Assembly: GCF_056712565.1 (NCBI RefSeq)
Contig: NZ_CM160072.1
Direction: 5' to 3' (one strand)
Length of the DNA stretch: 64,000 nt
A program made the translations under genes and the position numbers. The stretch's first letter is position 1; each line of letters starts with the position of its first letter. The notes beneath the pieces are model-generated. The model saw only the letters and a list, made by a program, of their open reading frames with translations, was not told the origin of the DNA and searched no databases. Shown one piece after another: positions 46,462 through 52,869 of the stretch.

Positions 46462-48500
<2,039 letters not shown>

Positions 48501-49346
48501 ATGGCTGAAGCGCAAAATGCTCCCCTGCTGCCGGGATACTCGTTTAACGCCCATCTGGTGGCGGGTTTAACGCCGATTGAGGCCAACGGTTATCTCGATT
48601 TTTTTATCGACCGACCGCTGGGAATGAAAGGTTATATTCTCAATCTCACCATTCGCGGTCAGGGGGTGGTGAAAAATCAGGGACGAGAATTTGTCTGCCG
48701 ACCGGGTGATATTTTGCTGTTCCCGCCTGGAGAGATTCATCACTACGGTCGTCATCCGGAGGCTCACGAATGGTATCACCAGTGGGTTTACTTTCGTCCG
48801 CGCGCCTACTGGCATGAATGGCTTAACTGGCCGTCGATATTTGCCAATACCGGTTTCTTTCGCCCGGATGAAGCGCACCAGCCGCATTTCAGCGACCTGT
48901 TTGGGCAAATCATTAATGCCGGACAAGGGGAAGGGCGCTATTCGGAATTGCTGGCGATAAATCTGCTTGAGCAATTGTTACTGCGGCGCATGGAAGCGAT
49001 TAACGAGTCGCTCCATCCACCGATGGATAATCGGGTACGCGAGGCTTGTCAGTACATCAGCGATCACCTGGCAGACAGTAATTTTGATATCGCCAGCGTC
49101 GCACAGCATGTCTGCCTGTCGCCGTCGCGTCTGTCGCATTTGTTCCGCCAGCAGTTAGGGATTAGCGTATTAAGCTGGCGCGAGGACCAGCGCATCAGTC
49201 AGGCGAAGCTGCTTTTGAGCACCACCCGGATGCCTATCGCCACCGTCGGTCGCAATGTCGGTTTTGATGATCAACTCTATTTCTCGCGAGTATTTAAAAA
49301 ATGCACCGGGGCGAGTCCGAGCGAGTTTAGGGCAGGTTGTGAATAA
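48501..49346 (+). CDS. araC: arabinose operon regulator AraC; C-terminus shortened and recoded by the adjacent islet
   Basis: 281 aa from ATG 48501 ([19 protein letters not shown]...), ending ...[11 protein letters not shown]; the K-12 form I recall is 292 aa, ending ...[19 protein letters not shown]. Confidence 0.93.
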
Positions 49347-49392
49347 TAAGAAAGAAGGGGGGGAACCCCCTTGCTTTCTTCATCTGACGTTA
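49347..49392 (+). terminator. putative rho-independent terminator immediately after the araC stop
   Basis: aagaaagaaggggggg-aa-cccccttgctttctt hairpin followed by a T-rich tract. Confidence 0.55.
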
Positions 49393-49860
49393 TTTATATA
49401 TTTCACGGGGGATTAATTTTAGTTATTTTTAGTTGAATCGTTTTACCTGAATTATTTTTTTTCTTGATAAAATATCGACAACGATTTCTTTTTGTAAAAA
49501 TAAAACGAAGGCTTATGTATCGGGATACCCATCATGAACATATTGTCCGGTTGCATCAGGAGAATATATCAAGCGGTTTGTTCATCGTAGGAACACCACA
49601 TTGAGCGGTTATGGCAGGCACTTCACGCCACCATAAATGCCGTTCGATGTGGCAGTTGTTGAAAAAAGTACGGCATTCTATGAAAAACGCCAGTTACTCC
49701 CTCAGAGGAGAACATGGTCTGGCAAAAGTGTAGCGGCATCAGGCGCAGCTATCTTTGTAAATTCATTCATAAAATGAATTGTATACAAAAAAATATTGAA
49801 AAATAATATTTTTCCTTATTGATATTATTTGCTATACGTTTTTTTTGAGGGGAGATTGTG

Positions 49861-50709
49861 ATGAGCAAACGTAACGATATTACTGATGGAATATTTGCAA
49901 CAACGAAAAAGTATGGATTAGTTTATACCGAAGAGTTAGGTTGGATCGATTTGGGGCATGCTCAGGGACAAGATGCCAGAATATTAAAAAGAAAATTGGA
50001 GCAAGAACATTTTTCAACATATTACGATGAATTTCATGATTGGTATTTTCCTGTTGATTATCATCAGGAAATGGGAATTCGGAAAAAAATATTAGGAGTA
50101 GATCTTACATTTCATACCGGTGTTTATACGAAGGTTATGGTTCGTTCATGTCTTTCACCCACTCTTAAAGCAAGAGTTGCCTTAACGTTAATGTATGGAA
50201 CTGCGAAGAGGTTTGAAGCATGGCAAAACTCATTTATTTTTAACTGGTATACTGATAGCGGATTTAGTGCAGAAGATTTAGTCTCAGACTTGATTGGTTT
50301 TTATCGTGTATTTGGAACAGGCCCCGATCCACTTTTATTGGCAAAACCTTTATCTTACACAAAAGCCTTACAAATATGGGATACATATGGAGCGCCAGGG
50401 AATTTTAAAAATACTGAGTTTACGCCATTCTTATTTACAACCCATCCTCCTTTTAAAAAAAATCAACTAATAAAAAAGAAGCTTCCAGAATGGTTAAATT
50501 ATATAAAGCCATTAGATGAGTCTTTTTCAATATTGTTATATAATCAATATAATAATAGACCTGTTACTAATTATTATAAAGATAAAAACAGAATAAATCA
50601 TGAGTTGTATAGTTCATTATCAAGTTCGGGAGCTATAAAGTTTTCAGAATCTCCCTTTGAAAGACCGCTTTTTCTTTTCTTAAACCCTCATTATCCGCAC
50701 AGGTCGTGA
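49861..50709 (+). CDS. hypothetical protein, 282 aa, no signal peptide, family unassigned
   Basis: Uninterrupted 283-codon ORF in roughly 30% GC DNA (unlikely by chance); RBS gaggggag 6 nt upstream of ATG 49861 (GTG at 49858 also in frame); product rich in K/N/Y/F: MSKRNDITDGIFATTKKYGLVYTEELGWIDLGHAQGQDARILKRKLEQEHF... Confidence 0.7.
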   Translation: MSKRNDITDGIFATTKKYGLVYTEELGWIDLGHAQGQDARILKRKLEQEHFSTYYDEFHDWYFPVDYHQEMGIRKKILGVDLTFHTGVYTKVMVRSCLSPTLKARVALTLMYGTAKRFEAWQNSFIFNWYTDSGFSAEDLVSDLIGFYRVFGTGPDPLLLAKPLSYTKALQIWDTYGAPGNFKNTEFTPFLFTTHPPFKKNQLIKKKLPEWLNYIKPLDESFSILLYNQYNNRPVTNYYKDKNRINHELYSSLSSSGAIKFSESPFERPLFLFLNPHYPHRS

Positions 50710-50715
50710 GTAGAG

Positions 50716-51138
50716 ATGTCAAAATATATTTATATTTTATTATCATTTTTAGTTTTATTCTTTATATTTTTCTATGCTTATATCTCATTGATGTCAAAGG
50801 AACATCACTATACACAGCATGAACTTTCCCCATTTTTCCTTTATACGCCAGAGAGTTTGCGAAATTTGCCAAACATATCAAACGTAGCCGAGTATAGCTA
50901 TTACTATAATGTTGATGATATGCAAACAAGAGTGATTGTTACATGGCGAAATATAGATAACATTTTTCTTCAGAAAGCAAAGCTAATAGATTTTTTGAAA
51001 AGAATGGGACCGAGTCTACAAAACGATTGTATATGGTTTTTTCATGATAAAAGTGATTATGCAAATAATTTCCAGCGTTATTGCATCATTGAGCACCGTG
51101 ATTCTCTGCAGGTGGAATATTTTGAGACTATCGAATGA
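50716..51138 (+). CDS. hypothetical membrane-anchored protein, 140 aa, family unassigned
   Basis: Starts 6 nt after the upstream ORF stop (operon / translational coupling); N-terminal hydrophobic segment YIYILLSFLVLFFIFFYAYISL followed by an approximately 110-aa soluble domain. Confidence 0.65.
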   Translation: MSKYIYILLSFLVLFFIFFYAYISLMSKEHHYTQHELSPFFLYTPESLRNLPNISNVAEYSYYYNVDDMQTRVIVTWRNIDNIFLQKAKLIDFLKRMGPSLQNDCIWFFHDKSDYANNFQRYCIIEHRDSLQVEYFETIE

Positions 51139-51159
51139 TAGGCAGAGGGTGTCTTTTGT

Positions 51160-51207
51160 GCCGGTTGTGAAGAAAAAGTGAATGATGTAGCCGTCAAGTT
51201 GTCATAA
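51160..51207 (+). other. displaced native 3' end of araC (non-translated remnant)
   Basis: gccggttgtgaagaaaaagtgaatgatgtagccgtcaagttgtcataa encodes ...AGCEEKVNDVAVKLS*, the K-12 AraC C-terminus, now separated from araC by the islet; yabI starts 85 bp after it as in K-12. Confidence 0.8.
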
Positions 51208-51292
51208 TTGGTAACGAATCAGATAATTGACGGCTTGACGGAGTAGCATAGGGTTTGCAGAATCCCTGCTTCGTCCATTTGATAGGCACATT

Positions 51293-52057
51293 ATGCAAGC
51301 ATTGCTGGAACACTTTATTACCCAATCCACCGTGTATTCATTGATGGCGGTGGTGTTGGTGGCCTTTCTGGAGTCGCTGGCGCTGGTCGGTTTGATTCTA
51401 CCCGGTACGGTGCTGATGGCGGGGCTGGGAGCGCTGATTGGTAGCGGTGAGTTAAGTTTCTGGTACGCCTGGCTGGCGGGGATTATTGGCTGCCTGATGG
51501 GCGACTGGATCTCCTTCTGGCTGGGCTGGCGTTTTAAAAAGCCGTTGCATCGCTGGTCATTTCTGAAGAAGAACAAAGCATTACTCGATAAAACCGAACA
51601 TGCGCTGCATCAGCACAGCATGTTCACCATTCTGGTCGGTCGTTTTGTCGGTCCGACGCGTCCGCTGGTGCCAATGGTGGCGGGAATGCTGGATCTCCCG
51701 GTGGCAAAATTTATTACGCCGAATATTATCGGCTGCTTGCTGTGGCCACAGTTTTACTTCCTGCCGGGGATTCTGGCGGGTGCGGCGATCGATATTCCTG
51801 CCGGGATGCAGAGCGGTGAGTTTAAATGGTTGCTGCTGGCAACAGCGGTGTTTTTGTGGGTTGGAGGCTGGCTGTGCTGGCGGTTATGGCGCAGCGGTAA
51901 AGCGACTGACCGTTTGAGTCATTATTTGTCCCGCGGTCGTTTGTTGTGGCTGACGCCGTTGATTTCTGCCATCGGCGTGGTGGCGCTGGTGGTGTTAATT
52001 CGCCACCCGTTGATGCCGGTGTATATCGATATTTTGCGTAAAGTGGTTGGGGTTTAG
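51293..52057 (+). CDS. yabI: DedA-family inner membrane protein
   Basis: 254-aa polytopic membrane ORF; synteny. Confidence 0.92.
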   Translation: MQALLEHFITQSTVYSLMAVVLVAFLESLALVGLILPGTVLMAGLGALIGSGELSFWYAWLAGIIGCLMGDWISFWLGWRFKKPLHRWSFLKKNKALLDKTEHALHQHSMFTILVGRFVGPTRPLVPMVAGMLDLPVAKFITPNIIGCLLWPQFYFLPGILAGAAIDIPAGMQSGEFKWLLLATAVFLWVGGWLCWRLWRSGKATDRLSHYLSRGRLLWLTPLISAIGVVALVVLIRHPLMPVYIDILRKVVGV

Positions 52058-52064
52058 GGGATAG

Positions 52065-52165
<101 letters not shown>

Positions 52166-52170
52166 GCATA

Positions 52171-52869
52171 TTAACCTTTAATTCCCAACAGCGCCGAAGC
52201 ACTCGCCTTACCGCTCAACAACTCATCGGTCTTACCCTGCCAGGCGATACGCCCGTCGGCGACCACCACCGAGCGCGTGGCGATCCGCGCCGCATCTTCC
52301 ACACTGTGCGACACCATCAAGAGCGTCATTTTTTGCTGTTGGCAGCTCGAACTCACCAGCGTCAGCATCTCCTGACGTAGCGCCGGATCGAGTGCGGAAA
52401 ACGGTTCATCGAGCAATAAAATGGGCTGTTCGCGTACCAGACAACGCGCTAACGCCACGCGCTGTCGCTGACCGCCGGAAAGCTCGCCAGGTAACCGCGC
52501 CATTAAATTATCAATCCCCATCTGGTGGGCAATCGCGTGCATTTTCTTCTGCTGCGCCGCATTTAGTTTCAACCCCGGATTTAGCCCCAGCCCGATGTTT
52601 TGCGCGACCGTCAGATGGCTGAACAGGTTGTTCTCCTGAAACAGCATCGACACCGGACGGCGTGACGGCGGCGTCGTGGTGTGATCTACGTCGTCGATAG
52701 TCAGCAAACCGCTGGCTGGCGTCAGAAAACCGGCGATCAAATTAAGCAGGGTACTTTTACCTGCGCCGCTTGGCCCGAGGATCGCCACCTGCTCGCCGCG
52801 TTCCACCGTTAAGCTAAAACGCATCGGCAAATGGTGGTAAAGCCAGGTGATATCAGTCAGTTTTAACAT
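52171..52869 (-). CDS. thiQ: thiamine ABC transporter ATP-binding protein
   Basis: 232 aa from ATG 52869 ([14 protein letters not shown]...); Walker [10 protein letters not shown] and ABC signature LSGGQRQR. Confidence 0.93.

Follow-up and report, generated by a model that had tools for sequence, protein, structure and literature searches.

The window analysed in the current study, a 64,000-nt stretch of DNA (assembly GCF_056712565.1, contig NZ_CM160072.1), comes from E. coli, and the region described here matches the type strain, ATCC 11775, at 100% identity. The gene order is araBAD, araC, a 1.8-kb islet of low G+C content that carries two ORFs (ORF1, 283 or 282 aa; ORF2, 140 aa), yabI, thiQPB and sgrR. 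An earlier note on this sequence placed approximately 500 bp between the araC stop and ORF1, which agrees with the 511–514 bp counted here (araC stop codon at nt 49344–49346; ORF1 start at GTG 49858 or ATG 49861). Within this gap, the left arm of the islet, the same note pointed to a segment of higher G+C content at about nt 49530–49760 and offered three explanations for it: a remnant of a former gene, a small regulatory RNA, or a small protein partner of the operon. The compositional anomaly is real, as the fraction of G+C in nt 49530–49760 is 0.463, compared with 0.320 in the remaining islet. In the sharper interval nt 49555–49752 it reaches 0.475 (47.5% vs 32% for the remainder of the islet; binomial p = 3.9e-6, i.e. 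about 4e-6), while the neighbouring sequences have values of 0.332 (nt 49347–49554, the left scar) and 0.200 (nt 49753–49857). Among the 1204 other 198-bp windows of the islet, none exceeded 0.399. The features recognised in the arm are collected in Table 1.

Table 1. Features of the left arm of the araC–yabI islet, in positions of the 64-kb window.
Feature	Position (nt)	Strand	Evidence or remark
Start of the island after the shortened araC, with a bidirectional GC-rich hairpin and T-runs (49355–49372)	49347–49372	+	Terminator-like on both strands
AT-rich upstream (promoter/leader) relic of a PfkB-family kinase gene	49373–49514	+	blastn against the ST131 locus
First 13 codons, MYRDTHHEHIVRL, of a PfkB-family carbohydrate kinase; Shine-Dalgarno sequence GAAGG upstream, remainder of the gene deleted	49515–49552	+	tblastn, DNA alignment
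GC dinucleotide at the deletion joint of kinase stub and IS fragment	49553–49554		Three-way comparison (window, ST131 locus, IS copies)
Transposase pseudogene fragment, codons 281–343	49555–49733	+	blastn, tblastn, PGAP, four-way alignment
40-aa ORF, tail …CRSMWQLLKKVRH…GLAKV*	49611–49733	+	Native C-terminal transposase frame
Right terminal inverted repeat, CGGCATCAGGCGCAGCTAT	49734–49752	+	Three reference elements align to here, then diverge
Spacer of 20% G+C before ORF1, with Shine-Dalgarno sequence GAGGGGAG at 49847–49854	49753–49857	+	Cassette side, not IS

The G+C-rich interval proved to be the end of an insertion sequence. By blastn, nt 49555–49752 aligned over 211 columns with an intact IS630-family copy on the E. 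coli plasmid p16F5M1D101 (extract 1501–1711), at 79% identity (E = 3e-50); the copy on E. marmotae pEM148 was 80% identical, and IS630 of S. flexneri pWR501 was 72% identical. The interval is collinear with the last 211 bp of all three intact elements, and each of the alignments contains a single gap, of 13 bp. At the protein level the homology is divided between two frames, transposase residues 281–307 being followed by residues 308–343 (tblastn, E = 9e-18 against the left arm and 3e-15 against the whole window), and residues 281–343 align with two IS630-family transposases (E = 9e-18 and 4e-17). The first frame translates as IRRIYQAVCSS*EHHIERLWQALHATI and the second as SRHHKCRSMWQLLKKVRHSMKNASYSLRGEHGLAKV*, the latter being identical to TRNHKCRAMWQLLKKVRHFMKTVSPFPGGKHGLAKV at 25 of 36 positions. 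The IS630 family, part of the Tc1/mariner/IS630 superfamily, is defined by a single transposase gene with a product similar to IS630-family transposases (PMC2170065). The intact transposase of p16F5M1D101 (WP_096307492.1, 343 aa) scores 247.7 bits against NCBIfam NF033545 (transpos_IS630, cut-off 100) and gives a Pfam DDE_3 match (1.5e-23). Pfam searches with the repaired 62-aa peptide of the remnant and with the 40-aa ORF returned only noise, both peptides being too short to score. The assignment to the IS630 family, made on sequence likeness, is contradicted by none of the evidence.

The gene is heavily damaged. Everything upstream of codon 281 has gone, and with it the initial ~940 bp of the IS, a premature stop (TGG to TAG) is present at nt 49588–49590, and a frameshifting deletion of 13 bp lies inside nt 49625–49637; the native stop codon, TAG, is still found at nt 49731–49733. 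Of the DDE triad only the third residue is kept, the E of I-E-R-L-W (nt 49603–49605), and the region coding for both aspartates (upstream of codon 281, including the VDNY of relatives) is deleted. The HTH_23, HTH_32 and HTH_33 domains, which cover residues 27–157 in an intact relative, were not found in the window. The segment is therefore a dead fragment of an IS630-family member and not a functional one. Intact relatives have a G+C fraction of 0.49–0.53 compared with 0.475 in the remnant, and the compositional anomaly is fully accounted for because the remnant keeps the IS's own composition amid island DNA of 30–32% G+C.

Only one end of the element remains. The left inverted repeat is deleted and its left flank is gone, while the right repeat is collinear with those of the three references and identical at 16 of 19 positions to the repeat of the closest intact copies. 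Past nt 49752 the three references diverge from each other and from the window. Homology halts 1 bp before the canonical end, …GCAGCTATT followed by TA: where the references have this sequence, the window reads …GCAGCTATCTT, so that the last base and the TA are non-canonical. A duplicated TA is expected next to the element ends in the IS630 family (PMC2170065). Because the canonical TA is absent and the homology is 1 bp short, the right end may be slightly eroded too, and the present junction between IS and ORF1 may not be the original insertion junction. Many other E. coli genomes have, in intergenic DNA without annotation, short matches of 41–48 bp to nt 49705–49752 (~90% identity), which are probably more solo ends of IS630-family elements.

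To the left of the joint, the arm derives from a different source. In ST131-type E. coli a larger island occupies the same site between araC and yabI, and blastn of nt 49200–49552 against this locus gave 76.6% identity over 411 columns, 61 of them gaps (E = 2e-94). The kinase stub has 10 of 13 identities to residues 1–13 of WP_000285500 (MYRDTRREYIVRL) by tblastn. Kinase homology ends at nt 49552 and IS homology starts at nt 49555, with no visible microhomology at the joint, and position 49554 is polymorphic (C/T) among strains. The hairpin at the island start now serves as the araC terminator, and the same element, with substitutions, is found in the ST131-type island (extract 2291–2330). The island is hosted by the 3' end of araC itself: AraC has 281 aa here (…SEFRAGCE*) and 292 aa in K-12-like strains (nt 49326–49350), and the original last 11 codons and stop of the gene (…EKVNDVAVKLS*) survive as an orphan fragment at the right border (nt 51154–51210). 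About 25 bp of araC sequence are present, in diverged form, on both borders. The part of araC beside the island is 93% identical to the K-12-like allele.

The arm is best read as two dead pieces of DNA lying end to end, the left end of a kinase gene (nt 49347–49552) and the tail of an IS (nt 49555–49752), which would have no function of their own; we put the probability of this reading at roughly 90%. The first of the earlier explanations, a remnant of a former gene, was correct, the gene being the 3' end of an IS630-family transposase with its right inverted repeat, and a 5' stub of a kinase gene lies to the left of it. The transposase pseudogene as such was already known, as it is annotated by PGAP/RefSeq, where nt 49594–49733 are labelled 'IS630 family transposase; frameshifted; incomplete; missing N-terminus', and the family is thoroughly known. 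The same annotation stands in every islet-bearing genome inspected, including ATCC 11775, Nissle 1917, CFT073 and CE10.

Among 5426 complete E. coli genomes, the araC–yabI site was found in three states: no insert (most genomes), the two-ORF islet (486) and a five-gene island with the kinase (575). The two inserts have a common left junction and different right junctions. The whole left arm was found in the same 486 genomes as the islet, at an identity of at least 98.6%, each time in one copy and each time on the chromosome. The carriers include ATCC 11775, Nissle 1917, CFT073, S88, LF82, APEC strains and CE10. The earlier note would have taken a lack of conservation among islet-bearing genomes as evidence against the segment; the arm is indeed present in 486 of 486, but the whole islet is equally similar, which makes this comparison uninformative and means that conservation of the arm reflects shared descent and not constraint. 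In four strains (the window, Nissle, E57 and MS20674) 10 of 514 columns were variable in the arm, compared with 6 of 1272 in ORF1 and ORF2 (Fisher p = 0.005), and across nine strains SNPs numbered 15–19 per kb in the arm and 6–9.5 per kb in the ORFs. The many homopolymer indels across the islet of strain SCU-485 were taken as probable sequencing errors and ignored. In the same nine strains the flanks varied far more than the islet, with 51 sites per kb in the 3' part of araC (nt 48900–49346) and 75 per kb in the 5' part of yabI (nt 51293–51600), compared with 6–19 per kb. This suggests either recombinational transfer of the islet from lineage to lineage or a mosaic origin, by recombination, of the flanks.

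The two other explanations in the earlier note, a small RNA and a small protein, found no support. A regulatory or structured RNA could be sought around a plus-strand hairpin at nt 49596–49652, as the plus strand of the remnant folds better than most of its shuffled versions (z = –2.98; 3 of 200 shuffles were as good) and no SNPs fall within the hairpin in nine strains. Its 19-bp stem contributes to a fold energy of –34.3 kcal/mol for nt 49590–49678, much stronger than the –16.5 to –18.5 kcal/mol of the equivalent stretch in intact IS630 relatives, and the tail of an intact IS has a z of only –0.84. However, the score is modest for a segment chosen post hoc and tested on two strands, the minus strand giving –1.49, and the source of the signal is this hairpin, the complementarity of which is largely inherited from transposase coding sequence and was joined by the 13-bp deletion; the hairpin would then be a by-product. 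On the plus strand no promoter-like site was seen upstream and no terminator-like site downstream, no Rfam family matched either strand of nt 49347–49857 (Rfam 15, E ≤ 1, in a scan spanning nt 48000–52500), and the available sequences, at 98.6% identity or more, are too alike for any covariation test. A small RNA at this position is considered very unlikely. A weak terminator-like site on the minus strand (nt 49692–49671) lies inside the transposase relic and was treated as a chance occurrence. In the yabI–thiQ intergenic region (nt 52051–52167) there are sub-threshold matches on both strands to the Rfam family naRNA4, which is REP-element-like (29–37 bits against a gathering value of 59.5). 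As to a protein, the short ORF seen earlier does exist on the plus strand but encodes 40 aa and not 39, a size that is unremarkable in itself because 111 ORFs of 30 aa or more overlap the surrounding 10 kb. Its residues ~9–40 represent the genuine C-terminal reading frame of the transposase past the 13-bp deletion, and residues 1–8 are out of frame. A second, chimeric ORF of 29 aa (nt 49515–49604, plus strand) consists of MYRDTHHEHIVRL followed by 16 out-of-frame IS codons and retains the start codon of the kinase and the Shine-Dalgarno sequence belonging to it; should any part of the arm be translated, this ORF would be the better candidate. Either product might in principle work with ORF1 and ORF2, and both frames are open in nine of nine strains. 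Against this, the 40-aa ORF is by homology a transposase tail, has no Shine-Dalgarno sequence, has its ATG paired inside the 19-bp stem and shows two SNPs, both nonsynonymous (N26S, L31F); moreover, by tblastn neither peptide lies beside the ORF1–ORF2 homologues of Enterobacter, Pantoea and Erwinia, and ORFs this short often arise by chance. A small protein partner is extremely improbable.

Three further possibilities would give the relics a present role in cis. The kinase promoter region (nt 49373–49514) might still fire and read through the IS tail, so that the arm would form the promoter and 5' UTR of ORF1–ORF2. The upstream region, Shine-Dalgarno sequence and ATG of the kinase are kept in the correct orientation, no plus-strand terminator-like site lies between nt 49373 and ORF1, and the 105-bp spacer before ORF1 holds no consensus promoter, so that ORF1 needs a promoter from somewhere. 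Yet a scan of nt 49373–49860 found no sigma-70-like or other promoter-like site on the plus strand, and the best candidate found by eye, TCGACA and TGtAAAAAT, has a suboptimal spacer of 15 nt. The upstream region also differs from that of the intact island by several indels (the 61 gap columns above), and homologues of the cassette elsewhere work without the arm; the ORF1–ORF2 cassettes on plasmids of Enterobacter, Pantoea and Erwinia show no DNA or peptide similarity to it. A co-opted promoter is therefore regarded as unlikely, although it is the only alternative of any weight. A fuller version, in which the fused relic has been exapted, the kinase promoter driving a long leader containing the IS tail and the hairpin at nt 49596–49652 modulating its stability or read-through, would be a little less likely again. 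Finally, the orphan right repeat might still act in cis, a transposase supplied by intact IS630-family copies producing one-ended events or rearrangements between araC and yabI. The similarity of the repeat to that of the closest intact copies, noted above, fits such a site, other IS630-family sequences are present in some islet-bearing genomes (two places per record, e.g. Nissle), and ISY100, with an IS630-family transposase, gave mostly single-end insertions in vitro (PMC2170065). The altered terminal base and flanking TA speak against it, as do the uniform structure of the locus in 486 of 486 genomes, none of which gives a hint of continuing rearrangement, and the finding of no further IS630-like sequence in the 64-kb window. 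It is judged highly improbable, and an arm made of two inert relics remains the preferred reading.

In the simplest history compatible with these two relics, an IS630-family element would formerly have stood between the kinase gene and the ORF1–ORF2 cassette, and one illegitimate deletion, possibly IS-associated, would have removed the kinase from codon 14 onwards together with the missing 5' part of the IS. Thereafter, slippage between the imperfect direct repeats CGACACCATAA and CGCAACCATAA would have cost the remnant its 13 bp. These repeats are 13 bp apart in intact relatives and flank the deleted bases, and replication slippage is the likely cause of this deletion. It is partly this deletion that made the hairpin at nt 49596–49652, which holds the ATG of the 40-aa ORF. 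The proposed order of events is made less certain by the orphan araC tail, which is absent from the ST131-type island. Among complete E. coli genomes the intermediate state (kinase, intact IS and ORF1–ORF2) was not found, all matches being to the full arm (486), to the kinase island only, or to unrelated IS630 copies. A donor with an intact IS beside ORF1 was likewise not found in an exact-match scan, which is insensitive to diverged copies: the 21-mer of the IS/ORF1 junction, searched in one genome per species, gave one match, in a Lachnospiraceae MAG. This was rejected as chance, since there was no similarity to the window outside the 21-mer. A literature search on the locus (araC/yabI/IS630; CFT073 locus tags c0075–c0078) returned nothing relevant.

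On the other side of the remnant, ORF1 and ORF2 (nt 49861–51138) form a conserved two-gene cassette to which neither NCBIfam nor PADLOC assigns a function: neither gave a match to either ORF, and Pfam returned only a sub-threshold DUF4056 hit for ORF1 (E = 0.13). In the homologues on Enterobacter and Pantoea plasmids (40–46% identity for ORF1, ~27% for ORF2) the stop and start codons of the two genes overlap, and homologues of ORF1 are also carried by Cronobacter plasmids and by a 2.7-kb plasmid of Erwinia. The cassette of P. agglomerans CFBP13593 is flanked by two fragments with the annotation 'amidohydrolase family protein' and has a tyrosine recombinase nearby, an arrangement that resembles insertion into a gene. 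ORF1 is split in two by a 1-bp deletion (~nt 50083) in Nissle 1917 and CFT073 (ST73), so the cassette is decaying in part of the population.

The direct importance of the remnant is small: a candidate sRNA and a candidate small protein can be struck off, and the anomaly in composition is explained by the native G+C of a transposon. Its value is historical, as the kinase stub and IS tail indicate that the 1.8-kb islet stands on the remains of a larger island that preceded it. The araC–yabI interval is therefore a recurrent site of insertion and replacement in E. coli of phylogroup B2/F type, and an IS-associated deletion would be one step in its remodelling.

When compared with IS630 (Shigella sonnei; S. 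flexneri pWR501) and with other elements of the family such as ISEc33, the fragment shares the last 211 bp, i.e. codons 281–343, the native stop and the right inverted repeat, with 72–80% identity in DNA, ~67% in protein and a similar G+C content. Only ~18% of an intact element survives, without the left end, the HTH domains or the first two catalytic aspartates. The closest intact copies found (p16F5M1D101 and pEM148) are just ~80% identical, and no closer candidate for the exact parent IS was found. The PGAP pseudogene (EAS44_RS25625 in ATCC 11775; C_RS29975 in CFT073) is the same object, but IS homology begins 39 bp earlier, at nt 49555, and runs 19 bp further, into the inverted repeat, to nt 49752; the kinase stub carries no PGAP annotation. 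The ST131-type island comprises, before yabI, genes for a PfkB kinase (a DeoR-ribokinase fusion of the 'RikA' type, in one record named 'transcription factor/ribokinase fusion protein RikA'), a DHDPS-family protein, TctC, TctB and TctA. In the islet, unlike this island, the kinase breaks off after codon 13 and its four companion genes are missing, and the right borders differ: the islet ends with the orphan araC tail, while in ST131-type strains the island extends to 8 bp before the ATG of yabI. The two nevertheless have in common the chromosomal site, the shortened araC, the terminator hairpin, the upstream region and the first 13 codons of the kinase.
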